NCBI GenBank assembly: GCA_036172245.1
Contig: JAYWIR010000040.1
Location: 248,001-312,000 of the forward strand
DNA length: 64,000 nucleotides
DNA from: Raillietiella orientalis
Taxonomy: Eukaryota
Direction of reading: 5' to 3'
Part shown: piece by piece, positions 5,295-58,976 of the stretch
Layout: each line of letters starts with the position of its first letter
Numbering within the stretch: position 1 is the first letter of the stretch
The notes under the pieces: generated by a model
Told to the model about the DNA's origin: nothing
The model's input: the letters and a program-made list of their open reading frames with translations, nothing else
The model's database searches: none
Position numbers and translations under genes: made by a program

Positions 5295-5320
5295 AATAAA
5301 CGCCCCGGCGTGTCCGGGTG
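5295..5320 (+). terminator. Representative 3'-terminal signal: AATAAA + CGCCCCGG-N5-CCGGGTG hairpin (14 copies in the window)
   Basis: Follows every non-B ORF2 stop + U-rich UTR and precedes an abrupt switch to another element; function is inferred. Confidence 0.7.
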
Positions 5321-5324
5321 AGAA

Positions 5325-5870
5325 ATCTCCTGCGCTTGTTCTGCAGAGATCACATGGATCTCCTGCAGCAGCGCAAGGTCGAACGATCCTAGAATGGCGG
5401 CCATGTCTCGCCTTCTGCCGGCGTCTGTCATGCCGTTCACGTTCCAAACGGCGATGCGCAGACGACGGCGTGAGGGGATTACCGGCAATACTGCCGGGAA
5501 GATGACGGTGTGGGGAAACCCGCCTCTTCCGAGGCGGGTGAAATGACCATTAGGATTTCAGCCTCCTCAGGCACCTTGGGTACCTTTCCGGCTTCAACCC
5601 CCTCCATCTCCTCCGTGTCTGTGCGTGGTGGTCTCTCGGGTGACGATTCCTGGGATTCTCACACGCTCATTGCACTCTCGCAGTCCGAAGTCATCTCCAC
5701 GCCTTCAGCCTGGAGAGGGGCTATCCGGGGTTTGCTGGACTTCCTTCCAGCCTTCCGGCGGGGTGCCGCGGAGATGGAAACTTGGTTTCCGGCCTGCGCT
5801 TCGGGGTCGGAAGTTACCGACTCCTCGGTGGAGGCTGGACGCCTCACTGCCTTTTTGCAAGTCTTGAAGG
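5325..5870 (-). mobile_element. ORF1 C-terminus / ORF2 start of a D-like element, bounded by two insertions
   Basis: KKAVRRPAS...PRRKAGRKS, then RRRLRIAVWNVNGMTDAGRRRD...EQAQEI; similar to 12067-12620. Confidence 0.85.
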
Positions 5871-7977
5871 TTTACACCCGGGTACGCCCGGGGCGTTTAT
5901 TGTTAAAACTCTACATCCAAAGTACAAGGCCCCGCTCACGGCCATATACACTGGACCTGCCAGGACGCCAAGACGCAGCACAGCGTAGCGTTCCTCAGCA
6001 GCGAAGGGGGATGGGGATAAAACAAAAAGAAAAATAAAAAATAAACAGACAAAAAGAAGTTGGAGGGCAGGGAAGGGATCACTGAACGCTGTGAGGAGGA
6101 CTCATCCGTTGAAGGAAGCCCTCGAGGTCATTCCGTATATTCCCCAGTTGGGGCCATCCGGCAGCTCTCCGCATGAAGCGTTGGGCGTATGGGATGACAT
6201 CCCTCGCGTGTGGACCCACTCCTTCGTTATTGGCGTCGCTCCATGCCGCCACGATGCCACGGACACAGCACAAGGCTGCGATGGCTGCGGATGGGTGCAG
6301 TGCGTCCTTCACGAAGAGGGGCCGAAGAACGTCTCTGGGGGTGCTGCCCGTAGGGAGCCCGAGGGTCGCCCCGAACCGTTCCCAGCGGGGTCGGATGGCA
6401 GCACAGTCCACAATAAGGTGGCAGAGCGATTCCCGCTCTCCGCATTTGACACACTCAGGATCCACAGCTCCCCTTGTCCAGTAGAAGCGGCGTGCGTTGC
6501 AGGGTAAACCCAAGTGCAGCAGTAGCAACGCCGACTCTTGCCACTTAAGGGGCAGGATCCTGGATTCCTTCAGTACCGGGGGCCACTTCAGCACATCCGT
6601 AGGGATGGCGAGCAGCTCGCCCCATCTCATCAATCCACGCGGCTGGACCCTCGGGGTCGTGGCGTCCGCCAGTTCTCCTGTGGTCCAGCCGCTTAACATC
6701 TTCTCCCTGCCTGCAATCTGGCAGGTGACTTGCCACCTCGGCTTCTGGCGATCCTGAAGCGCCCTCAGGAGGTAGGGCATCGCCTTTGCAAGGGGGGTCG
6801 TCAACGCCCACCTCCGACTTCGGGGAAATCCCAGTATTTCCCGCAGGGTGCGGATGGCGTATGGGCCGATTCGCAGGCAGTTCATATTGTTTTCACTCCT
6901 CCGGTTCTGCTTAGCCCATGTGCCAGCAGACTCCTCCAACCAGGCGGAGGAGTTGACGGGGCCACAAATCATCCAATCGTTTGTCTTCGCCAGGGTTGCT
7001 ATGCGTCCGAGCATAAGGCCGCATATTCGGATCTTCCGGCCAGGGCACAGAAGAAACGACGCGAGTCCTTCGCATCGGGACAGACGCCTGGCGAGGAGGC
7101 ATGCCGGAACGCACCAAGGGGTGCTCCACATCTTCGCTGCGATGGCAAGGGTTCGCCACCGCAGCTGGATTTCCACGCGCTCCAGCGTCAGGAGGCCAAG
7201 GCCGCCGTCCCGACGCGGAGCGCACAAGTCCTTCAGAGGGACTCGGGGCCTACCCTTGCCCCAAAGGGCTATGCGGAGGAGGTTCCTTGTCCTCTTTTTG
7301 CATTCTCTGAGGGCGGAGCAAACAAAAAGCAAGAAGCGGAGGATGGGGGCCGCAAAAGCGTTCCAAAACGCGGCCTGTTCCGGCAAGTGAAACTTCCCTT
7401 CCAAGAACGGGCCGATCGATGTCTCAACTTTTTGAAGACAGCTGGACCACGCTTCCGCAGGGGAGTGGTCACCCAACGGCACACCAAGGTACTTGAGGCA
7501 CCTCGCCGTGGGGATCCCCAGACGGACCCAGTCCTGCTGCCCTGCAAACGCTGCACCTACTGGCACCACCAACGACTTCGCCCTGTTGACCTGCAGTCCG
7601 GTCCCACGGCTGAGCAGATCGAAGAAGTCTCCGACCGCCTTCGCCGGGGTAGACATAGGTAACAGGAGAAGAAGGTCGTCGGCATAGGCTGCTACGGAGG
7701 GCGTGCCGGGACACGAGCTCGGCAAGGACGCCAAAGTCACCATGTAGGCTCTCAGAACCAACTCAAAGTAGGTGCTGAAGAGCAGGGGACTCAAGCTATC
7801 TCCCTGCCTGATGCCCCGCCGCACCGTCACGCCATACACCTTCTGACTACTGAAAAAGATGGAGATAATCGCATTCCGCCAGCAAGAGCGCAGGTAGGTA
7901 ATCAAGGAGGGTGGGAAGCCCATGCGACCCAGGAGATTCAACAAAAGCCCCTGGTCAACACAGTCGAACGCCTTGTG
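5871..7977 (-). mobile_element. Family C, 3' half (RT from KAFD to 3' terminus); uninterrupted frame 7944-6079
   Basis: RQGDSLSP, YADD, CVKC..HLIVDC; AATAAA+hairpin at 5901-5875; very similar to 10000-12066. Confidence 0.92.
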
Positions 7978-8090
7978 CGCTCTAAGGTGGACGTGTTTTT
8001 TTGGTGCTCCTCGTGCCAGGAAGTCTCCCCCAGTGCAAGCGTCGTGTGGTTCGGTGGTCGATCAGGCAGCGATGCCTGACGCGATCGACG
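7978..8090 (+). mobile_element. Family D 5' terminus (5' UTR and first ORF1 codons MPD)
   Basis: ggacgtgttttt...ggtgctcctcgtgcc...ggtggtcgatcaggcagcgatgcctgac matches the reverse complement of 23600-23700. Confidence 0.85.
7989..8000 (+). promoter_or_regulatory. Representative 5'-terminal motif GGACGTGTTTTT (candidate internal promoter; 8 copies/variants)
   Basis: Lies within ~5-12 nt of the 5' junction and upstream of the ORF1 ATG in families C-G; function is inferred. Confidence 0.5.
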
Positions 8091-8754
8091 GAGTCGATTC
8101 CGGACCTACTTCTGGACTGCGGTGTCCTACAAGGACTGTGGCGTAGGCTGGCAACAGCACTAATGCATCCCGTGGACACCTCAAGAGACTTGCTGCGACG
8201 ATTTTTCACGCCGAGCGGGCTGTCACTAAGCGCAAGGATTGCAACCATAGGTTGCATACGCGCGATAGTTTCCGTCCGCCAGGCGTTGGTAATCAACGGA
8301 CAGCACCATGAGGTCATCAGCAAAGCATCCTTCTACATGGGAGCATCCGCTAGATGGCCTCATTTGACAGAGGAGACAAAAAGGAATCTCGCCGCAATAC
8401 ACCGCCGGTTTACACACCCTCAGCAGCGGCGAACCCCGTGATCATTGCCCTACCCTCCATAAACTAATTTTGTATTTTCTTTTTACACCCGCGTCCCCAT
8501 AGGCTCCGGAACATTTGAGGTGCTCATCGTTTAAATCCCCGTGAGTACGGAGCCTAACCAAAAACCCGTTACCCTTCCCTCCAGTTTTTGATTTTTGTTT
8601 GTTTCCCCTCATTCCTCCCACGCTGCGAGCGGTTTGTTTACCAGGCCTGCGTGCCGGTAATTTTTCTATGTTCTCTGTCGTTCTGTTGGTTGGGGACATT
8701 GTCCCTGACCAGTTTATTATTATTAATAAACGCCCCGGCGTGACCGGGTGATAA
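8091..8754 (+). mobile_element. 3' terminal fragment of an A/E-like element
   Basis: LLLDCG.LQGLWRRL...IHRRFT C-terminus, U-rich UTR, AATAAA+hairpin 8725-8750. Confidence 0.85.
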
Positions 8755-11700
8755 ATTTCAATCTCCGCCGGCTAACATGTGAGCCGGAAACACAGGTGAA
8801 CGCGATGAACAAGTTGTGCGCCGCCATGCGTGCGCGCAACTTGTTCGCGGGTGAGAGAGGAATGGTCCGCAGCATCGACCACGTCTTCCTCGACGCTGAC
8901 CTGTGTTCATGGGTCGGCAAACGGGGGAGGGTTGCGTCAACCTTTTCGGACCATTCCCGGTTAATTTTCGAGATGCGGCTTTGCGACAAAAAACCGCCAT
9001 CCAGGGACTGGCGTCTGCCAGGGGACTGGACGCGACTCTCAGGTGCGAAGGAACACCTTCGCGAATACCTGAGAGGCGTCACGCTCCGGAATCTCCAAGA
9101 CTGGGACCTTTTTAAGGAATCGGTCCGGGAATTCTGCGAGCAGTTCCCCCTGGACCGCCTGCCCTCCGGATTCGGCGAGGGTCCTCGCAACCATTCGGCC
9201 TATTTACAGGCCCGAAGGTACGAGCGAACCCCTAATGTCCGTCGCCTGGCCGAGTACCGCGCCGGGGCCAAACGCCAAGCCTGGCAATCCGGGTCGGTCA
9301 GCTTGCTGGACGACCAGGGCCGGGAATGTTCGTCCCCGGCGTCGGTACGGCATCTCGTGCGGAGTTATTATTCCTCCCTTTACGCCAGGGCGCCCCCGGA
9401 TCAAGATGCCTCTCGGCTATTGCTTCCGGATGGTGCCCCGGCAATAGGGGAGGAGGAGTCGTTAAGCCTCGATGAGCCTTTTACCACCGGCGAAATTCTC
9501 GCCGGTATCAAAAGGCTCAAGAGGCGGAAAGCTCCAGAGGAAGACGGCTTGCCCGCGGAGTTCTATCAGAGCTTCGCGGAAGAGCTGGCACCCCTGCTGC
9601 TTCAGCTGACAAGGCTGATCCGAGACGAAGGCGATGTTCCCGCCTCGTTTCGGTCAGCCAGAGTGAGGCTCCTTCCGAAAGGGGGAGACCTTAGGAATTT
9701 GAACAACTGGCGTCCGATCACGATTGTGAATACGGACGGCAAGTTGGTTGCCGGGCTATGGGCTTCGCGTCTGGGGCAGGTGGCAGACTCCATTATTAGT
9801 CCGGAGCAGACATATGCTGTTCCCGGGCGAAGTATGGATGCCAACCTCTTCTTCGCGAGCACATGGATGCACGCGCAGAGGTGTCAAAAGGAAGGGAAAG
9901 GAAAAATCGGCAACCCCACTTTGGGGCCGCCAGCAGGGCAGGGAATGGACTCCCGGGCGGGGAAGGGGGCCTTAGCGCTCGCAGTCGATCTCCATAAGGC
10001 GTCCGACTGTGTTGACCAGGGGCTTTTGTTGGAGCTCCTGGTTCGCATGGGCTTCCCACCCTCCCTGATCAACTACCTGCGCTCCTGCTGGCGCCATGCC
10101 ATCATTTCCGTCTCTTTCAGCAGTCAGAAGGTGCATGGCGTGCCGGTGCGGCGGGGCATCAGGCAGGGAGTTGGTGCTGAGAGCCTACAGGGTGACTTTG
10201 GCCTCCTTGCCGAGCTCGTGTCCCGGCACGCCCGCCGTAGCAGCCTAGGCCGACGACCTTCTGCTTCTGTTACCTATGTCCACCCCGGCGAATGCGGTCG
10301 GAGACTTCTTCGATCTGCTCAGCCGTGGGACCGGACTGCAGGTCAACAGGGCGAAGTCGTCGGTGGTGCCAGTAGGTGCGGCGTGGGCAGGGCACCAGGA
10401 CTGGGTCCGTCTGGGGATCCCCACGGCGAGGTGCCTCAAGTACCTTGGTGTGCCGTTGGGTGACTACTCTTCTGCGGAAGCGTGGTCCAGCTGTCTTAAA
10501 AAGTTGAGACGGCGATCGGCCCGTTCCTGGAAGGCAAGTTTCACTTGCCGGAACGGGCCGCGGTTTGGAACGCCTTCGCGGCCCCCATCCTCCGCCCCTT
10601 GCTTTTTGTTTGCCCCGCCCCCAGAGAATGCAAAAAGAGGACGAAGGACCTCCTCCGCATCGCCCTTTGGGGCAAGTGGAGGCCCCGAGTCCCTCTGCAG
10701 GACTTGTGCGCTCCGCGTCGGGACGGCGGCCTTGGCCTCCTGACGCTGGAGCGCGTGGAAATCCAGCTGCGGTGGCGAACCCTCGCCATCGCAGCGAAGA
10801 TGTGGAGCACCCCTTGGTGCGTTCCGCCCCGTCACCTCGCCAGGCGTGTCCCGATGCGATGGACTCGCGTCGTTTCTTCTGTGCCCTGGCCGGAAGATCC
10901 GAAGATGCGGCCTTATGCTCGGACGCATAGCAACCTTGGTGAAGACGAACATTTGCATGGTTTGTGGCCCCGCCAACTCCTCCGCCTGGTTATGAGTCTG
11001 CTGGCACATGGGCTAAGCTGAACCGGAGGAGGTTAAACCACATAAACTGCCTGCGAATCGGCCCATACGCCAACCGCACCCTGCGGGAAATACTGGAATT
11101 TCCTCGGAGTCGCAGGTGGGCGTTGACGACCCCCCTTGCTACGGCGATTCCCTACCTCCTGAGGGCGCTTCAGGATCGCCAGAAGCCGAGGTGGCAAGTC
11201 ACCTGCCAGATCGCAGGCAGGGAGAAGATGTTAAGCGGCTGGATCACAGGAGAACTGGCGGACGCCACGACCCCGAGCGTCCAGCCGCGTGGATTAATGA
11301 GATGGGGCGAGCTGCTCGCCATCCCTACGGATGTGCTGAAGTGGCCCCCGGTACTAAAGGAATCCAGGATCCTGCCCCTTAAGTGGCAAGAGTCGGCGTT
11401 GCTACTGCTGCACTGGGGATTACCCTGCAACGCACGCCGCTTCCACTGGACAAGGGGAACTGTGGATCCTGAGTGTGTCAGGTGCGGAGAGCGGGAATCG
11501 CTCTCCCACCTTATTGTGGACTGTGCTGCATCCGACCCCCCTGGGAACGGTTCTGGGCGACCCTAGGGCTCCCTACGAGCAGCACCCCCAGAGACGTTCT
11601 TCGGCCCCTCTTCGTGAAGGACGCACTGCAGCCAGCCGCAGCCATCGCAGCCTTGTGCTGTGTCCGTGGCATCGTGGCGGCATGGAGCGACGCCAATAAC

Positions 11701-12066
11701 GAAGGAGTGGGTCCACACGCGAGGGATGTCGTCCCATACGCCCAACGCTTCATGCGTAGAGCTGCCGGATGGCCCCAACTGGGGAATATACGGACGGACC
11801 TCGAGGGCTTCCTTCAACGGATGAACCCTCCTCACAGCGTTCAGTGATCCCTTCCCTGCCCTCCAACTTCTTTTTGTCTGTTTATTTTTTTTTATTATTT
11901 TTTTTTTTGTTTTATCCCCATCCCCCTTCGCTGCATAGGAACGCTACGCTGGGCTGCGTGTCGGCGTCCCGGCAGGTCCAGTGCATATGGCCGTGAGCGG
12001 GGCCTTGTACCGCGGATGTAGAGTTGTTTTTTAAAAATAAACGCCCCTGGCGTACCCGTGTGTAAA
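8755..12066 (+). mobile_element. Family C ORF2 from endonuclease (D)FNL to 3' terminus, frameshifted
   Basis: IDHVFLD, SDH, KAPEEDGLPAEFY, NNWRPIT, CVRC..HLIVDC; AATAAA 12036-12041 + degenerate hairpin. Confidence 0.92.
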
Positions 12067-15000
12067 CCCCCAAGGCTGGCAAGAAGGCCGTAAGGCGTCC
12101 GGCCTCCCCTCAGGAGTTCCCCACTTTCGACCCCGAGGTGGAGGCCGGAAGCGCAGCCTGCGTTTCCACGGCACCGCGCAAGAAGGCTGGACGTAAGTCC
12201 ACAAAGCCAAGGAAGCTCGTCTCCCCCGTCGAAGGGGAAGAGATGGCTTCCGCGAGCGAGGGCGCCATGAGCGTGGGAAACTCTCGGGACCCGTCGACCG
12301 AGAGACTCCCACGCGCGGACACGGAGGGGATGGAGGGGGTGGAGGCCGAACAGGTGCCTCAGGTGCCTGAGAAGGCCGAAACCCCCATGGACATCCCGCC
12401 CGCCTGGCAAGAGGCGGGCTCCCCCACACCTTAATCTTCCCAGCAGTAATGCCGGGAATCTCCTCCCGCCGTCGTCTGCGCATCGCCGTTTGGAACGTGA
12501 ACGGCATGACAGACGCCGGCAGGAGACGAGACATGGCCGCCCTTCTCGAGTCCTACGACCTTGCGCTGCTGCAGGAGATCCACGTGATCTCTGCAGAACA
12601 AGCGCAATAGATCGAACGGATCTCCGGAGGGCGGCTATGGTACAGGCGTGGGAGAGCGAAAACTTGCGGTGTCGCCTACCTGCTTCGGCCAGCCGTCGAG
12701 GCCGCGGCTAGGGGCGTGCGGTTCGACGATCACGGTCGTGTCGGCCAGCTGACTCTCAGGTGGTCCGAGTCGATTGATCTGATCGTCACGAACGTGTACG
12801 CACCGAGCGGCAAGGACCTGATGAACAGAAGGGCGAGGAAAGAGCTTTTCCTTGCCCTCCGGCGAGACTGGCTGAGCGAAGCAGGCGTGCGGAATGCCCA
12901 TCTGGTTGCTGGCGATTTCAACGTTCTCCTGAAACCAGATGAGCAGAATCCTGTGCGTGACCTGGTCAACGAGGTGTGCATGGCGGTGCACACCTGTAAT
13001 CTGTTGGCCAGTGCACCGGGGATGGAAGGCAGCATTGACCACCTGTTTCTTGACGAGCACCTGTGCCCTCGCGTGGACAGGCGCGGGAAGTTACCGTGCG
13101 AGCTGTCCGACCACCGCCCGCTAGTCCTCGAAATCCATCCGCGCGACAGGGGTCCCCCTCGTCAGCGTGGCGTCTCCCAGGAAAATGGCTGAAGCTCCCG
13201 GACGCGGCGGAACATCTCCGCACGTTCATACGGAGCTTCAGGCTGCGGACACTCCAGGATTGGGACCGCTTCAAGCGGTCGGTCCAGGAGTTTTGCGACC
13301 AGTTCCCTCTGCACCGCCTACCTACGGGTTTTGGGACCGGGGTCCTTAAGGAACGAGCCTACCTGCAGGCCTGTCGTTACGCCAGGACCCTCGACATCCT
13401 CAGGCTGGCGGAATACAAAGCGGGAGCCGAGAGGCAAGCATGGCACTCCGGATCGGCCAGCTTACTGGACGATCAGGGCCAGGAGCACACGGCACTTGCT
13501 TAAATCCGCGGCCTGCTGCGGAGTTACTACTCCTCCCTGTATGCCAGGGCACCTCCGGATAGAAACGTCTCACGACTCCTGCTTCCGGAAAGCGCTCCAG
13601 CGATCGCAAAGGAGCAGAGAAAGACCCTCGACGAGCCTTTCACGATGGACGAGATCCTCTCGGCCATCGGAAAGCTCAAAAGGCGAAAGGCTCCAGGGGA
13701 GGACGGCCTGCCCGCGGAGTTTGATCAAACTTTCGCGGCTGAGCTTAGCCCCCTGGTACAGCAACTCACCTTGCTGATACGCGAGACAGGTGACGTTCCC
13801 GCCTCGTTTCGTTCGGCAAAGGTGCGGCTCCTCCCTAAGGGAGGAGATCTGAGAAGCGTGAACAACTGGCGTCCCATCACAATAGTGAATGCGCACGCGT
13901 AGTTGATAGCCAAGATGTGGGCAGAGCGTCTGGGACGGGTTACCAACATCTTCATCAGCCCGGAACAGACATATGCTGTTCCCGGGCGAAGCATGGAGCC
14001 GAACCTGTTACACGCTTCCACCTGGCTAGAACTCCAACATGAAAGGAGCTTGGTGCGCAACCGGAATTCCGGTGCGTGCGCCGGCAAGGGGTTGGATGGT
14101 CGGGTGGGGGAGGGAGCCCTTGCGGACGCAATCGACTTGCGAAAAGCATTCGATTGCGTCGACCAGCATCTCCTTCTGGAGATTTTGGAACGCTTGGGCT
14201 GAACGGCCTCATTAGTAACCTATCTGCGCTCCTGCTGGCGCGAAGCGCTCAACAATGTTACTTTCAGCGGGCAGACCGTGCACGGCGTGCCGGTGCGGCG
14301 TGGGATCCGGCAGGGAGACAGCCTGAGCCCCTTGCTCTTCAGTACCTGCTTTGAGTTGGTACTGAGAGAGCACAGGGGAACTCTGGCGCACCTACCGCCC
14401 GACTGTCCCGGTACGCCGGCCGTTTCAGCATACGCGGACGACCTTCTGCGGCTGCTCCCTATGTCCACCCCGGCTGCGGCGGTCGAGGAGTTCTTCGACC
14501 TGCTGCATAGGGGAACCGGACTTACGGTGAACAGGGCGAAGTCGTCCGCGATGCCAGTTGATGCGGCGTGGGCAGGGCAGCAGGACTGGGTCCGTTTTGA
14601 GATCCCCACGGTGAGGTACTTCAAGTACCTTGGTGTGCCGTTGGGGGACTACTCCCTTGCGGAAGCGTGGTCCAGCTGCCTCCAAACAGTAGAGACGGCG
14701 ATCGGCCCGTTCCGACGCGGCAGGTTTTTCCTGCCTGAACGGGCCGCGGTTTGGAACACGTTCGCGGCTGTTCTCCTCCGCTTCCTTCTTTTTGTTTGTT
14801 CCCCCACAGGGAGGGACAAAAAGCGGACGAAGGACCTCCTCCGTATCGCCCTTTGAGGCAACGGGAGGGCCCGAGTCCGCCTAAAGGACTTGTGCGCTCC
14901 TCGTCGGGATAGTGGTCTGGGCCTTCTGACGCTGGAGCGGCTGGAGCTTCAGCTCCAGTTCCGCTTGTCGGCACTCGTTCCAGAGTTGTCATGCACCTGT

Positions 15001-16246: not shown

Positions 16247-19200
16247 TCGAACGCCTTGTGGAGATCGACTGCGACCGCCAAGGCACCTGGCGTTCCCTCC
16301 TGCCGTCGGCGCCTGTTCTTCTTGCCTGCGGCAGTGACTTTCTGAGCAGCCTGGCTCTGCTGCGCCACAACTTCCTTCAGCTGCATCCATGTACGCGCGA
16401 AAAGGATGTTCGCCTCCATGGATCGTCCCGGAACCGCGTAGGTTTGTTCCGGGCTCACCACAGATTCCGCGATACTTCCTAACCGCGCGACACACAGCTT
16501 GGAAAACAACTTCACGTCCGAGTTCACCAAGGTGATCGGACGCCAGTTGTCAAGTTGACGCAAGTCTCCGCCTTTTGGCAGGAAACGCACCTTTGCTGAG
16601 CGGAAGGAATCCGGGACATTCCCGGATTCACTCATCAGCGTCGCGAGTTTCAGCATCAAGGGAATGAGCTCCTCTGCGAAGCACTGATAAAACTCTGCAG
16701 GGAGCCCATCCTCGTCTGGCGCCTTTCGTCTCTTCAGCCCAGCGATTGCGGACGAAAATTCATCCGTCGTGAAGGGCTCGTTGAGACGTTCGCGTTCCTC
16801 CTCGCCGAAAAACCGAGCATTCTGAGACAGTAGTATCTTAGAAAGAATATCCTCCGTTGAAGATTCCGCGTACAGCGAGGAGTAGTAGCGTCTCACAATG
16901 CGGCGTACTTCGGCTGGGGCCGAACATTCTGGCCCTTGTCGTCCAACAGGCATGCTGCTCCGGTCTGCCAGACCAGGCGCTCGGCCCTCGCCTTGTACTC
17001 TGCGAGACGCCCGACATCCGCGCGTCTTGAAAACGTGCGGGCCTGCAGAAAGTCTCTACTGTTGGCCACGCCCTCTCCGAAACCGCGTGGAAGCCGGTGC
17101 AAGGGGAATTGTCAGCAGTACTCGCGGACAGATCTTTTGAGATCGTCCCAGTCCCCAAGTTCTCGAATGGCAAAGCCTCGGAGGTATCCACGTAGATGCT
17201 CCGCAGCCTCCGGTTGGCTAAGCCAATCCGCCTGCATCCTCCAGCTTTGCAACGGAGGCCCCCTGCCTGGCGGAAGAATCTCAAACTCCAACCTGTGGTG
17301 GTCAGAAAGCTCAGTCAACAATCTTCCTCTCCTACCCACACGCGAATGCAGGTTTTCATCGAGGAAAACGTGATCGAGCGATCTTTCCATTCCAGGATCG
17401 CTGACCATCAAGTTGGCGGCGTGCACGGACGCGCACATCTCGATGGGCAGCGCGCGCTCCCTCGGGCGGCTCCAATCGTCGGAGAGCAGGCGGACGTTGA
17501 AGTTTCCAGCGACGAGGTGCGCCACTTGGAAGCCGGAGTTGTTGAGCCACTGGCTCTGCACCTCACCAAAGAAAGCTACTCTTTCTTCGAGGTAGCGAGA
17601 GCCACTCGGCGCGTAGACGTTTGTAACGACGAGATCGATGGACTCGGACCACTTGATGACAAGCTGGCCTATCCGTCCGTCGTCATCGAAACGAACACTA
17701 CGCACCGCTTCCGCCATTTTTCCTCTTACGAGGAACGCGACGCCGCACGTGTGTGCGCCGCCGCACCGCCAATGTAGCGTTCCGCCTGCGCGCTCCTCGA
17801 TTTCGGCTGCCTGCTCGTCGGAGATTACGTGAATCTCCTGCAGGAGCGCGAGGTCGAAGGGGCGCAGGGCGTTGGCTACTAATCGCCTCTTCTCGTCGTT
17901 CTGTAGTCCGTTCACGTTCCAACACGTTACGGACAGACGACGAGAAGACGCGATTCCCCGCATTACTGCTGGGAAGGTGGCGGCTTTTTGCTCGCTTTAT
18001 CCGGCGAGCAGACGGCGAGCAGCACGACTGGCTGGAGGGGACGGTCGCCACCGTCCTCTGTCGTGCTGCATGCATGTAATGCCTCCACGCCAGGCTTAAC
18101 CCCGTTGGGTTTCGTGGAAACTTCGCGTGGCTTTGTGGCTAGCGTTGCCTGGCTGCCTACTTTTGATCGGCGCGCACGCGCTTTCGAACGAGTTGTCCTC
18201 GTCTCGGTGATCGGAACTGCATCCATTTCGGAGTCCGACCGGCGCATGTTCGATCGGGTTTCGGTCTTCCACGAAATAGTGACAGGTTCTGCTGGATTGA
18301 CAGCTGTCCTGTTGTTTTTTCCGTCTCGAGAGCATCGCTTTTGGTGACGGTTGCTTTCATGGCGCGCGCGTTTTCAGCGTGCTCACGCGAAGTTGCACGA
18401 GAGACCTTTGCTGAAGACTTCTTTACTTCATTACAATTCCTCACTTCGCGTGGCGCCGTAAATGGAGATTGTGCTCCATTGCCATCTTTGAAGCCATCCG
18501 CGTCTTTGGACAGGAGCACTTTCCATGGCTCCGACACGCTTGTCATGGACGCTGCCTTCGGTAGGGCTTTTAATCCCTTCGTTGGCATGGCATCCGCGTC
18601 AGTCGAGAGCTTGCTCTCCGACTGCGTCGGCGTGAGATTTTTCTCCGCTTTCGCGGTGTTGGATCGCGACGCAGATTTTTTTTTGCGGACTTTCGAAGTC
18701 GACACGGCACAACCCTTCTTACGCGATTTGGGCTTCTCAGCCACTGCGGGAGTTGAAGGAATGGATCTGACGGTACTGGAAGTGTCCTTAACGCCGTTCT
18801 CCATTGGCGTCACCGCCGGCTGCTCGAACTCCGAGAGAGCCGGGCGTGCTTGGGAAAGACCGCTATTGCGCCTAGGGGGACTTACCTTTGCCCCGGATTC
18901 CCTGCACCCTTTTTTTTGCGGCTCCCCTGCCGCGAGAGGGGGCGCGCAGGCCTTCGCATGCGAGGTTTCCTGCTGCTTTGGGGCGACATTCCGCCTCGCG
19001 TTTTTTCGGAATTTCTGCCGTGGGGTCTCCAGGTTTTTCGCAGAATTTTTCTTTTTATCCGCGCTTTCTTTTTTAAAATGGAGCTCCGCGGCTGCCTTTT
19101 TTCGCAAAAGATCCGGGCAATTTTTCAATTGGTGCCCTGATAGTTTGCAATAACGGCATTTTCCAGAGGGGCATTTATCCAAACAATGCCCCTCCTTCCC

Positions 19201-19962
19201 GCATTGCTCGCATGTTCTTACTTTGCCCACGAACCACAGGTGAACGACCGTGTCTTTCAGCTGTAGTTTGGTGGGCAGCAGACGGCGGTCCGGCATTGTA
19301 AGCCGGACTCCAGCGAATCCGCTGTGTATGGACGGGAAGTCATTGAGGTTGCTACGCACCCTCCACAGCGCATGGACCGTGGCGAATTTCGCCAACGCGT
19401 TCCGAATATCAATAACGGAGATTTGCGACTCGATGTCGAAAATCTCCGCAACAAATGAGTCGTCCATGGCGGCCGGGAAGTCCTTCTGGCCACGGATCGA
19501 CAACGGGGTGCGCAGCAAGCGTTGCACAAGTGCAGCGTCTTTGCAACGCACCTTTAAATAGCCCATGTCTTTTACGGACATAATGGCGAGAAGGTCCTCC
19601 TCCCGCACGCCAACATGGGTCAGTTCATCGTTGAACTGATTTCCGTCGCGCGCAGAAAGAAAACCACTCACCTTATATCGGAGAGCAGGTCTATAGCCTT
19701 GGGCTACGTATGCCCGCAACTCCGACTCGTCGAGTGGTTTCCCTTTGACGGCTGCTGTGGCGGCAACGTCAGCAAAACTCCTCTCCATTGGCGACAAAGA
19801 CGAAGTGGAGGCGGCCGTCGGTTCCGCGATTGCAGATCCGGATGCTGTTCCTCCAACTTCAGTAGCTTCAAGTTGGGTCAACATCGTCGTCAAAATGTAC
19901 GACGCCAAGATGAAGCGGATGAAAGCACGGAGACGAGAGCGAAGAAAAACACGTCCGCACTC
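16247..19962 (-). mobile_element. Family E, 5' part (5' UTR, ORF1, endonuclease, RT up to KAFD)
   Basis: 5' motif at 19956-19945; ORF1 with two CCHC knuckles; TAATG at 17965-17961; ORF2 CWNVNG...DLHKAFD. Confidence 0.92.
17963..19884 (-). pseudogene. Family E ORF1 (gag-like, 2x CCHC zinc knuckle, long K/S/A-rich tail), probable frameshift near 18340
   Basis: CEQCGKEGHCLDKC and CRYCKLSGHQLKNC; C-terminus (LQPVVLL..PPSQQ) lies in another frame. Confidence 0.8.
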
Positions 19963-22270
19963 GATTGAAATCTCCCGCTATCAGGTGAGGCTACCGCACG
20001 CTCGTGTTCGCCAGCCAGTCTCCCTTCAGGGATTCAAGCAGCCTGCTACGGTTGCTGTATCCCTTTTTGACCGGTTCGGACGTACACATTCGTGACGATC
20101 AGATCGATCGAGTCGGACCAGCCGACAGTCAGCTGACCGACCCGAGCGTCGTCATCGAAGCGCACGCCCTTCACGGCAGCGTCGATGGCCGGCTTGACGA
20201 AGAACGCGACCCCGCAGGTGTTGCGGATGCCGCATTGCCAGTACAGCCGACCCCCCGCGATCGCCTCGATCTCCTGGACGTCTGCCGCGTTGATCACATG
20301 GATCTCCTGCAACAGGGCCAGGTCGAACTCCCGCAGGGTGTCGGCTGTATCTCGCCTGTTACCCTCGTCGCGCAGCCCGTTGACATTCCAACAGGCCGCG
20401 CGAATCCGACGGCGACTGGCGAGCCCAGGTGTTACTCCTGGGAAGATGGCGATGAGGCGTCCGCCACCTGCTTGGGCAAGACGCTAGGTGGAGGAGGAGG
20501 GTCAGGTGCTGAAGGCACCTCGTCCCCCTCCTCCATAGGTAACGGCGCGTCGAGCCGATCAGCCACAGGTGGTGTCGCCTACCTGTTCGCCCTCCTCCAC
20601 GTGGGCGGGCTGTTCAGGCTCGGCGACTGCAGGAAGGACTTCGCCCCCCTGCTCACCCTCCTTCATAAAGGTGGCTGGCTCGACGGCTTCCGAGCGTGGG
20701 AGTTCCCCCTCTGGGATTCCCACGCTAGCGCTACCTTCCTGCTTCTCCTCCTCGCTGGTGGAAGGGAGGCGCCTCCTGGGTTTCTGGGACTTGCGTCCCG
20801 ACTTCCTGGGGGGTGCCTCCGAGGAGAAGGATGTACTTCCGGTCCCAGGTCTAACTCATCTGTGGGGGCCTTCTTCGCCGGAGCCGGCCTTCGCACGGCC
20901 TTGCGCGATGGGTTCTCACGCTCGGCCAGCGTGACCGCGAGCTCCTCCGTTGCCTGCGCGAACGCGGCGTCCGCGGCTTCGACCGCCGCTTTGTCGCGCG
21001 GCTCACCCTCTGTGTAAACAGAGGGTTCGCCGTCGCGAGCCTCGGGCGCAGCGGAAACGGCAGGGGGAGGATCGTCGCTCCGGGTGGCAACCTCGGGAAC
21101 GACGCTTCGTTCCAGTGCCACCGTGCACTCGCCAGAGTTTTCGAGCGCGGACCGGGTTTTTTCGGCTTACCGGCCGTCTTGCGCTCTTTGCTCTCCGCGG
21201 ATGGGAGTTTCTTTGGCTTTCTGGCCTCTACAAGCTGCCATCCCTCTTCGCCTTCCACCGTTTCAGAAGGTTTATCCTCCGAATTACGCGCCGGAGGTTG
21301 AGGTGTTTGCAGCTTGTGCTGGCCCTTTTCCACTTTAGGTCTAGAGACCTTTGAAGCGCGTTTCCCCTGCGCTTTTTTCGCGGCAGGGGGAACCGGGGTG
21401 GGGCGTTTGGGGCACACGCGCCGAACGTGGCCCCGCTCCCCGCACAAATGGCATTGTATATTGGGACACCTTTTACGTAGGTGTCCCACGGTATCACAAT
21501 GCCCGCAATACCGGGGCTTCCCTACATACCACAGGTCGACGTTTTCTTGCGCCACCTGTAGTTTGTGGGGAAGCCCACAATTCTCCCTTACGGTGATCCG
21601 CGCTGCAGCCTGCCCACCAAAAAGGCTATCGAAGCCGTCGAAAATGGAGGGTTCCGGCCACAGTGCGTGCACCTCACCGTTCTTTCGCAGTTCTTCACCA
21701 ACCGCTGACCGCGTCTTGCGGCTGGTGATGCCAGTCATGTGGACCACCACGGAGCGGTCCACTGATACTGGCAGGATCTTGCGGCCGTCTACGTTCAGCG
21801 GCGCATGGATTAGGCGGTGAGCCAAGGTGACATCTTTGGAGACCACCTCGACCCGCTGCCCGCCGCTGAGGACAGAGAGGCCGTCCAGATCCTTCTCAGT
21901 GACATTCGCGTCCTTCAACGCTTTGGTGAAGGCGCGCGCTGTCCGGCCGTCGAACAAGTTGCCTACCTGGTAGACCAGCGATCTCTTGTACTCAGAGGCC
22001 TTGTATGCGGCCATCTCGGCCATGGTTTCTGCGCTGGGCGCGTCCACCATGGCGCTCCATGTCCTCGGCGTGGCCGGGGATGATTCCGGGGCGGCTGCCC
22101 CTGCTCCAGTAGGCTGTGGGGGCGAACTAGCCTCCCCCAGTCCCACCTCCATCGCGGTGTCCTCTGGCGTCGTGGCCATTGGACACCGACGATGTACACA
22201 AAACACCACACACAAGAAAGCGCTTTCCTACTACCCTTTGAGGAGTGAAGGAAAAACACGTCCTCCAACT
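19963..22270 (-). mobile_element. Family C, 5' part (5' UTR, ORF1, endonuclease up to GDFN)
   Basis: Starts AGTTGGAGGACGTGTTTTT; ORF1 MATTPEDTAMEV..CGHCDTVGHLRKRC..CHLCGERGHVRRVC; ORF2 CWNVNGLRDEG..HLIAGDFN. Confidence 0.92.
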
Positions 22271-23705
22271 GGCCTTGGAGGGGGCTGGCTGCAACGATGC
22301 TGCCAGCTCCTCCGCCGCACGCTCGAAGGCGGCGTCATCGATCACCGTCTCGATTACGGACGCTTCCGCCGGTTCGCTCCCCACGCTGTTGACATTTTCA
22401 ACAGTGGATTGCTCGTCGGAAGCAGCGATTTCTACCTTGCGGCGTTCGACGAAGACGAGTTCCACGACGACACTGCATTCTTTTAAATTCTCGCTAACCT
22501 GCTGTTTTTTATTTTGGTAGGCGAGCTTTTTTTCAATTCGTCGTTCTTTCTTTGACTTTTTCTTTTTCGCTGTGGCTTCTTGCCATTCCGACACCTGACC
22601 GCTTTTGTCGATCTTTTCGGCATTCGTTGCCGGGGTGTCGGCTGAGGCCTGGAACACGGGAGTGGGTGGCACAGCTTGAGCGGCAGCCTTCGCCGCCAGC
22701 CTTTTCTGTAGCAGCCGCGCGCGTTTTTTTAGGTTCCTCGCGGAATCCACGCGCACAGCGGATTGTGGACACACTTTCTTCGTGTGGCCCATTGTCCCGC
22801 ATACCAGGCACTGTACGTTGGGGCACCTCCTTTTGAGGTGTGCCGACGTGTTGCAGAAGCCACAGTATTTGGGCTTCCCCACGTACCAGAGGTCGACGCT
22901 TTCTCCGCCGACCACCAGTTTGTGGGGATGGGTAGAGCCCTCCCGAACGGTTACACGGGCAGCCGTGAGGCCGCACTGAACTGTGGTATAGTCCTCGAAA
23001 GGACTAGGCTTGGTCCATACTGCATGGACCGTGCCTTCTTTTCCCAACACGGCGCGTAACTGTTCTTTCCGCATCCGCGCGGTAACTCCTAAAAGGTAAA
23101 CCACCATACTGTGGTCCGCCGCAACGGAAAGGAGCCTGCGTGTCCCCATTACCACGGGGGTTTTAAGCAGACGTTGGGACAGATCTGCATGTTTGCAGAT
23201 CACCTCTACGTACTGCCCCCCGCTACGAATGGTCATAGCGCACAGCTCCTCTTTAACATCGAGAGCGCGCATCCCCTTCGAAAAGGCGCGCGCACTCTCA
23301 GAAGAATACAAATTTCCTACCTTGTAGAATAGTGATGGGTTATACCCCTCTTCCACATATGCAGATAATTCCGCCGCGGCTGCAGGAGATGGCGCCGACA
23401 CGACGGCGCTCCACGCCCGCGCTGCAGCGGGGACCGGTTTTGTGGGGGCGGACGTCCCCACCTCCTTCGCCACTGAAGGCGACGTTGCCGCCGCCCCCTG
23501 GCACTTCAACATTTCTAGAGGCGACGTTGCCGCCGCCACTTGGCACTCAATTTCTTCAGGAGGCGACGTTGCCACCGCCCCCTGACACGCACTGGTGGTC
23601 GTGTCAGGCATTGCTGCCTGATCGACCACCACCACACACGAAGCCTACACCTATGGACCGTTCCCGGCACGAGGAGCACCGAGAAAACACGTCCGCTCTA
23701 GCCGA
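22271..23705 (-). mobile_element. Family D, 5' part (5' UTR and ORF1 up to LQPAPSKA)
   Basis: 5' motif ggacgtgttttc at ~23694-23683; ORF1 MPDTTTS..CGFCNTSAHLKRRC..CLVCGTMGHTKKVC. Confidence 0.9.
23478..23590 (-). repeat. Three 42-bp tandem repeats in the family D ORF1 N-terminus (CQ.AAATSP)
   Basis: ggcgacgttgcc recurs at 23478, 23520 and 23562. Confidence 0.85.
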
Positions 23706-25820
23706 CGTAAAGCTTTCGACTGCGTCGACCAGGAACACCTTTTGGAGCTCCTGGAACGCATGGGTTTCCCGGCCGTGCTCCAGTCCTACCTGCGCTCCTG
23801 CTGGCGCAAAGCGTCAATAAATATTGGTTTCAGCGGCCGGCACGTGCACGGCGTGCCAGTGCGCCGCGGTATCCGGCAGGGTGACAGCCTGAGCCCCTTG
23901 CTCTTCAGCATCTACTTCGAGTTGGTGCTGAGGGCATACAGGGTAACTCTGGCAACCCTACCGAGATCGTGTGTCGGCACGCCTGCCGTGTTGGCCTATG
24001 CAGACGATCTTCTGCTGCTGCTTCCCGGGTCCACCTAGGCGAGTGCGCTCGAGGACTTCTTCGAGTTGCTGCGCCGCGGAACGGGCCTGGAGGTGAACAG
24101 GGCGAAGTCGTCCATGGTCTTTGTGGGTTCGGCGTGGGCTGGACGGTCGGACTGGATCCGCTTGGTGATCCCCACGGGCAGGTGCTTCAAGCACCTCGGC
24201 GTACCGTTGGGGGACTTCTGCGCAGCAGAAGCCTGGTCCGACCGTCTCCAAAAGGCAGCGTTGGCGATCGGTCCGTTCCAAGAAGGCAACTTCTACTTGC
24301 AGGAACGGGCCGCGGTGTGGAACGCGTTTGCGGCTCCCCTCCTTCGCCCCCTACTTTTTGTTTGCCCCGTTCCTTATTTTATTTGGAAACGAGCAGCGGG
24401 CCTCCTGAGGACAGTCCTTTGGGGCAAAGGGAGGTCCCGTGTGAGGATCAAAGACTTGTGCGCTCCACGTAAGGACGGTGGACTTGGCGTACTTACGTTG
24501 GAGCGCATGAAACTGCAGCTTGGTTTAAGGACTCTCGCCCTCGCGGCTGAATTGTGGGACACGCCTTGGTGCGTTCCAGCACGCCTCCTGGCCCAACAAA
24601 CCTGCGGAATCGGTGGACTTTTGTCGTTTCTGTCTGCGCGCGTCTGCAGAAGAGCATACTGTGGCTCTATGCTGCGACGCATCTTCGTTGCGGTTCGGGA
24701 GAACGCCTCGATCTCCTGCCACCCAGGGAACTACTCCGCCTGGTTGCACGAGTCAGTCTCCACCTGGGAAAAGATCCACGTTCCGGCGGGCACAAGGATC
24801 ACTTGTATGAAAAGGCACGCCCGCTGGACGCTGCAGGAGATCGTGCAGTCCCACGACAAGCTTCTGTGGGCCTTGATAATCCCCCTCGCCTCAGTGCTGC
24901 CCTTCCTTGTGGATGCCAGGGACAGTAGCGAGCAGGGGAAATGGACCGTGTCCTGCACTATAGGCGGCAGGACACAATCGATAAAGGCGTGGACATCTCG
25001 GCAGCTAGCTGACGCTGCGACGCCGAGTGTCCCGCTCAACGGAATTCGACGGTGGGGCGAGCTACTCGGACTATCTCCGGAGGAGATGAAGTGGCCCCCA
25101 GCGTCCTGGAACAGTGGATCCCTCCCCCTGAAATGGCAGGATGTGGCGTTGCTTGTGGTACTCTGGGGATTACCATTCAAAGCACGCCTGCACCACACCA
25201 CCCGGGGGGCTGTGGATCCCCAGTGCGACCGCTGCGGGGAAAAAGAGACCTTCCCCCACCTTCTCATTGAGTGCAGTGCCATCCGCCCTTTATGGGATCG
25301 CCTTACGGCGATCCTGGACTTCCGCGGATGCGGCCCCAAGGACGTTTTTAGGCGCCTCTTCTGTAGTGACGCCTTGTTCCCCCCCGCTTCTGTAGCAATC
25401 CTCTGCTGCATTCGAGGGATCGTGGCGGCTTGGAACCCCACCAGGAGAAGACGTCAGCCAACTGGCAACGCCTTACGATGGACTCGCATTTTCGCGCTCA
25501 GTGTCTGCAAGTGGAGCCACTTGGGCTCTGAAAGGACTCAGCTTGTCCGGATCGTGGATAGGATCTAGAGGACCTGCCCACGCGCAACGTAATCCCTTCC
25601 CTGCCCTCCCACCCCTAAAACATTTGTTCCCCCCCCCACATTTGAACTTTTTGTTTCTTTTTGTTTGTTATTTCTCATCCCCGCGCATCGCAAGGACCTC
25701 TCCGGCATGCAGCCGGTAACCAGCAAGCTGTTTTGGAGTGGTGAACCTTCGGGTTTGCCATGCGACATTTCTATGTAATTTTATTTCTAAGAAATAAATG
25801 CCCCGGAACATCCGGGTGTG
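23706..25820 (+). mobile_element. Family J, 3' half (RT from KAFD to 3' terminus)
   Basis: KAFDCVDQ, RQGDSLSP, YADD, CDRC..HLLIEC; AATAAA+hairpin 25793-25818. Confidence 0.9.
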
Positions 25821-30973: not shown

Positions 30974-33005
30974 CAAACAGGCGACCTCCCGCGATCGTTT
31001 CGATCTCCTGGACGTCTGCCGCGGTGATCACGTGGATCTCCTGCAACAGGGTCAGGTCGAACTCCCGCAGGGTGTCGGCTGTATCTCGCCTGTTACCGTC
31101 GTCGCGCAGCCCGTTGACATTCCAACAGGCCGCGCGAATCCGACGGCGACTGGCGAGCCCAGGTGTTACTCCTGGGAAGATGGCGATGAGGCGTCCGCCA
31201 CCTGCTTGGGCAAGACGCTAGGTGGAGGAGGAGGGTCAGGTGCTGAAGGCACCTCGTCCCCCTCCTCCATAGGTAACGGCGCGTCGAGCGGATCACCCAC
31301 AGGTGGTGTCGCCTACCTGTTCGCCCTCCTCCACGTGGGCGGGCTGTTCAGGCTCGGCGACTGCAGGAAGGACTTCGCCCCCCTGCTCACCCTCCTTCAT
31401 AAAGGTGGCTGGCTCGACGGCTTCCGAGCGTGGGAGTTCCCCCTCTGGGATTCCCACGCTAGCGCTACCTTCCTGCTTCTCCTCCTCGCTGGTGGAAGGG
31501 AGGCGCCTCCTGGGTTTCTGGGACTTGCGTCCCGACTTCCTAAAGGGTGCCTCCGAGGAGGAGGATGTTCTTCCGGCCCCCAGGTCCAACTCACCTGTGG
31601 GGGTCTTTTTCGCGGGAGCCGGCCTTCGTACGGCCTTTCGCGAGGGGTTCTCACGCTCGGTCAGCGTGGCCGCGAGCTCCTACGCCGCCTGCGCAAACGC
31701 GGCGTCCTAGGCTTCGACCGTCGCTATTTCACGCGGCTCACCCTCTGTGTAAACAGAGGGTTCGTCGTCGCAAACCTCGAGCGCGGCGGAAACGGCGAGG
31801 GGAGCCTTGTCGCACCGGGTGGTAGCCTCGGGAACGACCATTCGTTCCAGTGCCACCGTGCACTCGCGCAGAGTTTTTGAGCGCGGACCGGGTTTTTTCG
31901 ATTTACCCGCCGGCCTATGCTCTTTCTTCTCAGCGGATGGTCTTTTCTTAGCCTTTCTGGCGGCAACAAGCTGCCAGCCCTTTTCTCCTTCCATTACTTC
32001 GGAAGATTTATCCTCCGGCTTTTGCGCTGGAAGTTGAGGTTCTGGCAGCTTCTGCCGGACACTTTCCACTTTAGGTCTTGCGACCTTCAAGGCACGTTTC
32101 CCCTGCGCTTTTTTGGCGGCAGGGGGAACCGGAGTGGGGCGCTTGGGGCACAGACGCCTAACTTGGCCCTTCTCCCCGCACAGGTGGCACTGGATGTTAG
32201 GACACCTCCTACGGAGGTGTCCCACGGCATCACAGTACCCGCAGTATCGTGGTTTCCACACGTACGAAAGGTCCACGCTCTCTTGCGCGACCTTCAGTTT
32301 GTGGGGAAGTCCGCAATTCTTTTTGACGGTGACCCGCGCTGCAGCCTGACCACCAAAAAGGCTACCGTAGCCGTTAAAAATGGTGGGTTTGGGCCACAGT
32401 GCGTGCACCTCCCCGAACTTTCGTAGTTCTTCTCCGACCGCAGAGCGAGTCATGCGGCTGCTAATGCCGGTAATGTGGACCACCACGGAGCGGTCCATTG
32501 ATATCGGCAGGATCTCGCGGCCGTCCACGTTCAGCGGTGCATGAATCAGGCGGTAAGCCAAGGTGACGTCTTTGCACACCACCTCGACCCGCTGCCCGCC
32601 GCTGAGGACAGAGAGGCCGTCAAGATCCTTTTCTAATATATTCGCCTCCTGCAGCGCCCTGCTAAATGCGCGTGCAGTCCTGCCGTCAAACAAGTTGCCT
32701 ACCTGGTAGACAAGCGATGGCTTGTACCCGGAGGCCTTGTATGCGGCCATCTCCGCCATGGCTTCCGCGCTGGGCGGCCACCATAACACTCCATGTCCTC
32801 GGCGTGGCCGGGGATGATTCCGGGGCGGCAGCCCCTGCTCCAGTAGGCTGTGGGGGCAAACTAGCCTCCCCACGCCTACCTCCATCGCGGTGTCCTCCGA
32901 CATCGTGGCCATTGGACACCGACGATGTACATAAAACACTACACACAAGAAAAAGCGCTTTCCTACTACTCTTTGAGGAGTGAAGGAAAAACACGTCCTC
33001 TAACT
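30974..33005 (-). mobile_element. Family C, second 5' part (5' UTR, ORF1, endonuclease up to GGRL)
   Basis: Close paralog of 20240-22270; starts AGTTAGAGGACGTGTTTTT. Confidence 0.92.
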
Positions 33006-34352
33006 GGCCTTGGGGGCGGCCGGCTGCAACGAGGCAGCGAGTTCCTCCGCGGCGCGCTCGAAGGCGACGTCATCGAGCCTACGCTCGATGACAAACGCCG
33101 CCGCCTCGCTCCCCTCCTCGTTGACTTTGTCAATGGAGGGTTGAGCAGGGGCAGCAGCGAGTTCTTTAGCGCCGCATTCGTCGATGGCGAAAATCCGCTC
33201 TACGACGACGCAGCAGCTTTTTGTTTTTTGGCGGCGCGGAGCGGTTTCGCTCCGTTTCGCGATTTTTTGTGCCTGTATGGCACTTTTCTTTTTAGAGTTG
33301 ACCTCCTACCAACCAGACTCTTGGCTGACGTCCTCAACCTCTTCGACGTTTTTAGCCGTGGTCTCGGGGCTGGCCTTCGCCTCGGTGGCGGAGGTTATCT
33401 CTTAAGCTGCAGCTCGCGTTGCCAGCTTCTTTCTTTTCTTCGCCGCGCGCTTCCTTGGGTGTTTTGCGGACACGACGCGGACTGAGTTTTGGGGGCACAC
33501 CAGACGGGTGTGCCCAGCTTGTTGGCACTGCTGGCACTGCACGCTCGGACACCTCATTTTAAGGTGACCAAAGCTGCTGCAGCAGCCGCAGAACTTGTGT
33601 TTCCCCACGTACCAAACGTCAACGGATTCACTGTTGACGGTGAGTTTGTGGGGAAACTCACACCCTTCGCGAACCGTCACTCGCGCTGCACCCAGGCCGC
33701 AAAGCACCCCGTCGTAATCAACAAAAGTAGTAGGCTTTCCCCACAGCGCGTGGACAGTTGCAAATTTTTCTAGTTCGTTCCGGACGGTTTTTTTCGTCAT
33801 CCGGAACGTAATACCGGTCAGGTGAATGATCACCGACCGGTCTTCTGTAATTGGGAGAAGCTCTGGCTGCCCATAATTACCGGGGTTCGCAAAAGTCTCT
33901 GCGCAAGAGTTGCCTCCTTGCAGATAACTTCCACAAATTGACCCCCGATTCTGACGGACATAGCCAGAAGCTCCTCCTTTTGTACGCTGAGAACGCGTAT
34001 CGCCTGCAAGAAGGCGCGCGCGTTCACGGGAGAATGTAGACCGCCTACCTTGTATAGGAGGGGTGGGTTATACCCCTCTTCCAGGTAGGCGCGCATCTCC
34101 GCCGTAACCGCTGGCGTAGGTGCCGCAGCCACGGCGTTCCAAGTCCTGGGTAGGGCCGGGCGCGCATCCGTGCTGGCGGGAGCGCCCACTGATGCGTAAG
34201 CCCCCACCTCCATTCCCTCCGGGGGCAATGGGGTCATCGCCCCCGGATCCTCACCGGTGGTGGTATCAGGCATTGCTGCCTAATCCTCCACTCACACCAC
34301 CCAAAAGCACCAACGCAAACCAAACTCAGGGGCAGCGAAAAGACACGTCCAT
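33006..34352 (-). mobile_element. Family F, 5' part (5' UTR and ORF1 up to QPAAPKA)
   Basis: ORF1 MPDTTTGEDPGAM.. nearly the same as 37554-38820; 5' motif ggacgtgtctttt at ~34350-34338. Confidence 0.9.
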
Positions 34353-37472: not shown

Positions 37473-37553
37473 GAGCGGACCTGTCTTTTCGTTGCTCCTG
37501 AGTTCCATTTCCGTTGGTGCTTGTGCGTGGTGTGGGTGGAGGATTAGGCAGAA

Positions 37554-58792: not shown

Positions 58793-58976
58793 CCTGCCGA
58801 GTCGGTGAACTTGCTTCGCGGCTCCAAGTATTGTGCGCTCGACAACATAATCTGTTAAATTGTGCTCGTGTGTGCCCGAAGAGGGAAGTTTTCCAGACGA
58901 AACTACAAAAGAAGCGGCGAGGAGACCGCGGCAAAAGACCTGGCAGTGGTCCCGTGCAGCAAGACCAGCTGCCAGG

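Follow-up and report, generated by a model that had tools for sequence, protein, structure and literature searches.

Sequence evidence for a LINE family that inserts at one site in ORF1 of its sister LINEs and probably carries a copy of its target

Site-specific long interspersed nuclear elements (LINEs) with an apurinic/apyrimidinic endonuclease (APE) are few, and their targets (ribosomal DNA [rDNA], small nuclear RNA, tRNA arrays, microsatellites, telomeres, and DNA transposons) change slowly. Here, we describe family C, a LINE found in a 64,000-nucleotide (nt) stretch of the Raillietiella orientalis genome (the window; contig JAYWIR010000040.1, G000:C40:248001-312000; eukaryotic assembly of 210 Mb in 491 contigs). 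The window is a nest of related retrotransposons that lack long terminal repeats (LTRs), each with two open reading frames (ORFs), i.e., an ORF1 with a CCHC motif and an ORF2 with APE, reverse transcriptase (RT), and zf-RVT regions. We are highly confident that family C inserts site-specifically and in the sense orientation into ORF1 of the sister families D1, D2, and F, at CCYCC-NN-GGC in the ORF1 tail that is rich in lysine and proline. The host ORF1 is inactivated by the insertion. Letters C, D, and F were taken from an earlier reading of the window (the original prediction); D1/D2, G, A, H, and K were assigned in the present analysis. These families, which insert into one another, are referred to below as the guild.

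Targeting of other transposons is known for Tx1-type LINEs (PMC4494074, PMC4640811). Tx1L occurs in Tx1D and Tx1-Mar in Mariner-N4_AMi (PMC4494074, PMC1950540), Tx1-8_Crp and Tx1-4_AMi occur in LTR retrotransposons, and Tx1-9_AMi occurs in Harbinger (PMC4494074). As far as these accounts describe the Tx1 clade, the guild resembles it in the APE-RT-zf-RVT ORF2, the CCHC ORF1, one preferred site in another mobile element, and tandem copies around a target copy. The best named protein match of the guild is also an alligator "transposon TX1" protein (30%). In contrast to the Tx1 elements described there, C targets the coding sequence of sister LINEs, in three families at once, and targeting within the guild is mutual (D into the RT of C, G into its endonuclease, and F into its linker). 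The guild endonuclease is also ~18 residues shorter, and the RT tree leaves the Tx1 placement unfixed.

R1 of the Drosophila melanogaster group is likewise APE-type and site-specific. The 6 to 27 nt of upstream target that its transcripts are inferred to carry would anneal and make the 5' junctions precise, and new R1 copies enter the target copy found at the 5' end of an older R1, as in C tandems (PMC2718515). The DNA pattern of C would fit an R1-type carried upstream target. However, R1 resides in 28S rDNA and belongs to another clade, whereas C resides in LINE ORF1 and its nearest proteins are L1/Tx1-like; in the R1 account, the carried piece stops 9 bp short of the site on its upstream side and produces a deletion, whereas that of C would span the site and looks like a duplication. 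Earwig R2 propagates a 22-bp downstream duplicate with substitutions, with self-cleavage upstream in 28S (PMC3774820). A target duplicate with substitutions that is inherited in RNA and yields uniform 5' junctions is thus an R2 feature, which C may share. R2 is described with a restriction-like endonuclease and a hepatitis delta virus-like ribozyme, whereas C has an APE domain, no Rfam ribozyme match, and a 5' end resembling an RNA polymerase II promoter with an initiator plus a downstream promoter element (DPE). In the authors' models for melanogaster-type R1 and several R2 lineages, the carried target primes the second strand (PMC2718515, PMC3774820). Zepp and ZeppL of green algae are L1-type LINEs that nest in existing copies; Zepp is reported to target itself, mostly in 5'-truncated arrays forming one cluster per chromosome (PMC8226300). 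In contrast, C spares its own ORF1, enters other families at one base position, and retains its 5' end, its self-insertion being limited to the leader (i.e., the target copy ahead of an existing C, in tandems) and one off-site case. Tx1-type transposon targeting, R1/R2 carry-over, and Zepp nesting are known parts. In the main texts of the open-access literature that we searched, a scope that does not extend to Repbase or subscription papers, we found no account of LINEs directed at a fixed codon in other LINE families.

The site preference of C was evident in searches using only the C body as a query, i.e., blind to the flanks (30 of the 40 listed 3' loci and 30 5' loci, each set counting the window's own copy). 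Twenty 3' ends were located in a host ORF1 (16 in D1, 3 in D2, and 1 in F) and 7 before another C, with 2 elsewhere and 1 at a contig end. All 30 5' ends adjoined CCYCCAAGGC, either in ORF1 of D1, D2, or F or in the copy before another C. A genome-wide pattern search for the 3' terminus returned 41 exact matches and 194 with up to two mismatches (sister families included; control, 0); the flank readings leave aside C375:3329 and most one-mismatch termini. Thirty-six of the 41 exact termini lie at the site, 35 directly and L190 after one extra A. Pattern searches for the 5' end gave 96 matches to a body motif and 94 to the 10-mer plus leader (control, 0). Because many contigs break inside C, all counts of C insertions are lower bounds.

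Using the downstream host flank alone as a query, we surveyed 30 D1, 30 D2, and 30 F sites; C occupied 8, 9, and 1 of them, respectively, and 72 were empty. F copies are 97 to 99% alike and younger, and their lower occupancy may reflect this young age. The ORF1 of C has itself lost the site, with no sense match at one mismatch or fewer in six C copies. In tandem C-C junctions, the site copy ahead of an existing C was used again, which shows that positions 6 and 7 and all bases past +10 are dispensable for recognition. The proposal that C targets the P-S/P-K-A codons of sister ORF1s was thus borne out genome-wide, with empty sites and without a single origin.

Within the window, exact CCYCCAAGGC occurs only at 12067, 22281, 33016, and the empty site at 38812 (Table 1). 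The copy at 5870 has two mismatches, a level reached by 183 of 128,000 window positions (0.0014 per random junction). The four junction strings and the empty site quoted in the original prediction are all present where it had placed them, and the hosts are D2, D1 (12067), and an F-type copy (33006). The four junctions nevertheless represent only three insertions. The stretches 23764-22272 and 5870-5325 are both covered by an empty D2 copy (L222), on which they overlap by 10 nt, and the C pieces at 22281-19963 and 7977-5863 belong, in colinear order, to one element; the junctions at 22271 and 5870 are therefore the two ends of a single copy, and four independent window events were rejected. The middle of this copy was replaced by nested G and D1. 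The proposed ~11-bp duplication was likewise rejected, since base 11 differs between hosts (T) and element (C); the overlap spans 10 bp (22272-22281 and 33007-33016). Although the 10-mer does stand on both sides of C, its upstream copy is often element-derived rather than a fresh duplicate. C bodies are closer to one another than their flanks are (93 to 95% versus 75 to 80% on the 3' side; 86 to 93% versus 72 to 75% on the 5' side), which is not the equality expected of one duplicated event.

Table 1. Features of the C insertions and their hosts in the window
Feature	Position	Strand	Remarks
Host D2, part downstream of C insertion (ORF1 end, ORF2 start)	5325..5870	-	95% to L222 1489-2034
Host D2 cut by antisense family A 3' end	5325	-	End of D2 downstream part
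Downstream target copy, insertion 1 (2 mismatches to usual 10-mer)	5861..5870	-	
C copy 1, 3' half (RT from KAFD motif, zf-RVT region, 3' untranslated region)	5871..7977	-	94% to complete C copy L094; RVT_1 match
AATAAA, hairpin, and AAA of C copy 1	5871-5901	-	
C copy 2, endonuclease GDFN motif to 3' end	8756..12066	+	95% to L094; family G 3' end adjoins at 8755
Downstream target copy, insertion 2, in host D1 ORF1	12067..12076	+	D1 reaches 3' end at ~16246
Family G 5' half, nested in C copy 1 at GDFN; cut by D1 at RT KAFD motif of G	16247..19962	-	
C copy 1, 5' part (5' untranslated region, ORF1 with CCHC knuckle, ORF2 start)	19963..22271	-	94% to L094
GGACGTG, DPE-like motif common to sister-family 5' ends	22257..22263	-	Putative DPE (PMC4748587)
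Upstream target copy, insertion 1	22272..22281	-	
Nine host-like bases from predicted transcription start to site	22282..22290	-	Suggested by spacing and mismatch profile
Predicted start A of C copy 1, 27 nt before DPE-like G	22290	-	
Host D2, 5' part (5' end, most of ORF1)	22282..23712	-	95% to L222 1-1498
Host D2 itself antisense at KAFD motif of another ORF2	22282..23712	-	
C copy 3, 5' part	30977..33006	-	87% to L094; endonuclease cut by antisense 3' end of another family
Upstream target copy, insertion 3, in F-type ORF1	33007..33016	-	Host 5' end near 34350; predicted start A 33025
Empty site in ORF1 of full-length F, codons A-P-K-A	38812..38821	+	F at ~37477-43002

A single origin of the C insertions is excluded by phylogenetic trees. 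In trees of 500-nt host flanks, neither for D1 (30 rows) nor for D2 (28 rows) did any of 200 bootstrap trees unite the occupied hosts in a single clade, and occupancy required 7 and 6 changes, respectively, as for shuffled labels. On a tree of 61 C 3' bodies (including one non-C row and three chimeric long branches), the host label changed 28 times compared with a shuffled mean of 30.3, a value as low being obtained in 28 of 200 shuffles.

The upstream target copy often carries letters that do not belong to its host. Positions 6 and 7 of the upstream 10-mer are GC or AC in 24 of 34 nontandem 5' junctions. The C at position 7 of these 24 copies is absent from 72 empty sites and 45 host 3' flanks (Fisher P = 3e-20), and a hand tally found it in 53 of the 94 genome-wide matches to the 10-mer plus leader. 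These variants occur in D1, D2, and F hosts alike and hence travel with C. In 10 of 12 complete C insertions, the two ends differ at positions 6 and 7. Host-discordant letters, evaluated for 28 junctions (7 dropped because of indels or tandem arrangement) and 69 empty sites (3 dropped), amount to 0.115 per base between -9 and +10 at junctions versus 0.019 at empty sites. Between -30 and -10, there is no excess (0.027 versus 0.030), and the excess of discordance is confined to about -5 to +7. It is thus quite likely, judging from these letters, that the upstream target copy is often carried along by C. A carried stretch of 20 nt or more, an idea raised by L086, was not general, with no discordance excess upstream of -9.

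The 5' ends of the guild share the motif GGACGTG, which is similar to a DPE. In insect LINEs, the DPE is described at +28 to +32 (PMC4748587); if GGACGTG is taken as a DPE at +28, the predicted start lies 9 nt upstream of the C site. A CA dinucleotide whose A lies 27 nt before GGACGTG is present at most C, D, and F ends (28 of 35, 46 of 57, and 24 of 29, respectively), and a duplicated D end in L073 begins exactly at the predicted start A. Most families also have a short predicted helix (3 to 8 bp) around GGACGTG, and we prefer the DPE as the interpretation of this putative promoter motif over a helix or ribozyme. A 5' ribozyme was rejected, as the four Rfam matches were at chance level and included no ribozyme family. 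We place the probable start of C RNA ~9 nt upstream of the site, with the target copy included in the transcript.

Family C is an APE-type non-LTR retrotransposon of the L1 group. Window frames matched the Pfam domains Exo_endo_phos, RVT_1, zf-RVT, and zf-CCHC (for ORF1 of C copy 1, zf-CCHC was below the cutoff, with an E value of 0.00094), and the C ORF2 matched human L1 ORF2p with an E value of 3e-44. A structural model of the C endonuclease aligned with the L1 endonuclease (L1-EN) with a Z score of 22 and a root mean square deviation of 3.0 over 205 residues. There are no LTRs, the 3' end is defined and has a polyadenylation signal, and the junctions are of the target-primed type. The span between the GDFN and DH motifs is 43 to 46 amino acids in the guild proteins in which it could be measured, compared with 63 in human L1, i.e., ~18 residues short. 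The YT(W/F) anchor of eight homologs is missing in the guild, and we did not find the betaB6-betaB5 hairpin loop with its conserved Thr anchor. The lost part may be the loop tip or a connector, as gap placement is ambiguous and the model has a predicted local distance difference test score of 62 to 76 in that stretch. It corresponds to the region of the L1-EN minor-groove hairpin, whose deletion is reported to have abolished significant L1-EN nicking (PMC1950540).

We consider it likely that site-specific insertion, a target leader borne by C from an upstream start, and second-strand priming together account for these observations. The ORF2 endonuclease would nick the bottom strand where the 10-mer starts, and the fixed 3' hairpin and AAA would be the point at which reverse transcription begins. 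Transcription would begin in host sequence, ~9 nt upstream of the site, at a position set by the internal DPE-like motif at +28, and the C RNA would carry ~19 nt of the previous target. The end of the complementary DNA (cDNA) could then anneal to the new target and prime the second strand, so that 5' junctions would be uniform and mostly full-length and the apparent duplication in them may bear donor letters. Reuse of the regenerated upstream copy would produce tandem C-C arrangements. Protein-determined targeting with RNA-assisted 5' joining is therefore our best interpretation.

Several observations weigh against this interpretation. The ~18 residues are missing where studied relatives read their target, which leaves site recognition without an explanation. 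The search for further C termini suggested by the original prediction placed nearly all of them at one site, but of the 41 exact 3' termini, 4 (L032, L043, L198, and L199) are elsewhere and 1 was not seen. Being star-like, with 46 of 58 and 19 to 20 of 25 to 26 branches open, the trees do not fix the number of independent events. Neither G (0/10) nor K (0/5), H, or any of three singletons shows the CA spacing, and a CA also occurs in C at 23 nt (28/35). The strong support for the carried leader comes from DNA, and gene conversion among copies could spread leader variants. The upstream copy is a perfect duplicate in 10 of 34 5' junctions and in 2 of 12 complete copies, which plain duplication fits equally. 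Indeed, an ordinary 10-bp target-site duplication, with variant letters arising by later mutation and spreading by gene conversion or recombination, would explain the F-type letters found in F hosts among these matching copies (L061 and L071). Dense arrays of 90 to 97% identical copies would permit conversion, and ancestral-type R1 is described as giving plain duplications and tandem arrays (PMC2718515). We nonetheless regard this explanation as unlikely. The variants are limited to the upstream copy and to -5 to +7, with no excess farther up, whereas conversion tracts should extend variable distances into the host, and variant letters occur in none of 117 other target copies. D shows the same one-sidedness (a variant in four different hosts, the sense insertion L238, and the L073 start).

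A bolder possibility is that the carried target copy itself picks the site, i.e., that pairing of RNA or cDNA with DNA guides a trimmed, less specific endonuclease and that the target is inherited through the leader. Sister endonucleases are 49 to 66% identical while their targets are unrelated, all guild endonucleases examined are 17 to 20 residues shorter between the GDFN and DH motifs, and more 5' ends than 3' ends were found. L043 sits at a site like the GCG leader variant, with an extra C at its 3' junction, but it is one case and its 5' end was not seen. Leaders with two mismatches are still found at the unchanged AAG site in three hosts, a protein divergence of 35 to 50% would be enough for new specificities, and R1/R2 carry-over, as described, serves second-strand priming while the protein selects the site (PMC2718515, PMC3774820). 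We hold leader-guided choice to be improbable. Equally doubtful is its extension, in which a promoter split between target (initiator) and element (DPE) would make the transcript open with the last landing site, guiding the trimmed endonuclease, and a rare off-site landing would found a new family with a self-perpetuating target; if true, such LINEs would be naturally reprogrammable and homology-guided. By far the least probable explanation is that a few ancient insertions multiplied as host-C composites or segmental duplications without any targeting. Near-identical pairs (L069/L076 and L117/L122) and the same G insertion recurring in several C copies would be expected from composites. However, C lies at the homologous base in three host families that are only 72 to 87% alike, the occupied hosts are interspersed with empty ones, each of the hosts has leader variants, and tandem insertions reuse the site. 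Leader variants, body-versus-flank identities, and host trees have already largely refuted it.

The sister families of C show comparable preferences for sites, which we mapped on ORF2 of C or ORF1 of F. D and F ends were found by element body, whereas A ends and most G ends were found through their nearness to C or hosts, and these counts are biased. Guild 3' ends consist of AATAAA, a hairpin, and two to five A's, joined directly to the target at C junctions, with no long poly(A). D 5' ends are antisense at the K-A-F-D codons of RT (of 59, 53 share one codon, 3 are nearby or inverted, and 3 are unmapped), F ends lie antisense immediately ahead of the DWD motif, in the ORF2 linker (29 of 32, the other 3 being F-F tandems), and G ends are in the sense orientation at the GDFN motif (10/10 and 12/12 ends). 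A and a sister family are antisense in the endonuclease of D1, D2, and F, 12 codons past QEIH (27 of 27 A ends and 3 sister-family ends). Several H-type families are at a GFG motif, and further sites have one to five copies. Targeting is mutual in that C inserts into D and F and is itself a target of D, F, and G. The F and G sequences differ at their own sites. In the RT tree, the guild (six families of which had endonucleases compared) forms a clade (99*) in an open fork with an alligator TX1/Channa group; curated Tx1L, Keno, Kibi, and Koshi were not among the references. The closest database protein is a single one, P0001 (68%), without context, and no relatives with flanks were confirmed among 41 pattern matches in metagenome contigs. 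At least five well-sampled sister families have five unrelated targets, all inside each other's genes, and offer a natural series for studying how an APE retrotransposon gains a new target and what share RNA ends have in it, a question that bears on retrotransposon-based gene insertion. Here, mobile elements serve one another both as a safe harbor and as an inactivator.

In the window, D junctions lie at 7960-7990, 16230-16262, and 23685-23725; F junctions at 34350-34380, 37477-37500, and 42978-43020 (further F loci, L160-L189); and junctions of A or its sister family at 5295-5340 and 49129-49175. In L238, D is inserted in the sense orientation at a near-palindromic version of its site. G is present at GDFN of at least five complete C copies (window, 8725-8765 and 19950-19985; L100-L109), as separate events or as a comobilized composite.

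L043 is one C insertion in C's own ORF1, with an extra C at the 3' junction. A second hotspot there was suggested by 11 of 40 matches that stop at a contig end ~535 nt into C and was rejected, as only one junction (L043) was found. The contigs that stop 526 to 537 nt into C, at the ORF1 spot of the L043 C 3' end (L065, L069, L071, L073, L076-L078, L080, L089, and L090), probably reflect an assembly break at a collapsed young repeat. L198 and L199 at 1498 have C-type 3' termini of an older subfamily, at sites without a guild-protein match; both flanks start with CC. In L126 (9144-9200), a tandem junction of another family has a target copy like a short telomere-type repeat unit, a single case. 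Positions 54208-64000 of the window hold two copies, 91% identical to each other, of a LINE family that is more distant (~30% protein identity) and whose 3' end differs; this family is sister to the guild in the RT tree and has pieces at 1-733 as well. About 20 kb to the left of the window, L127 (G000:C40:218901-228900) is AT-rich and without guild termini, and the nest seems to stop there.

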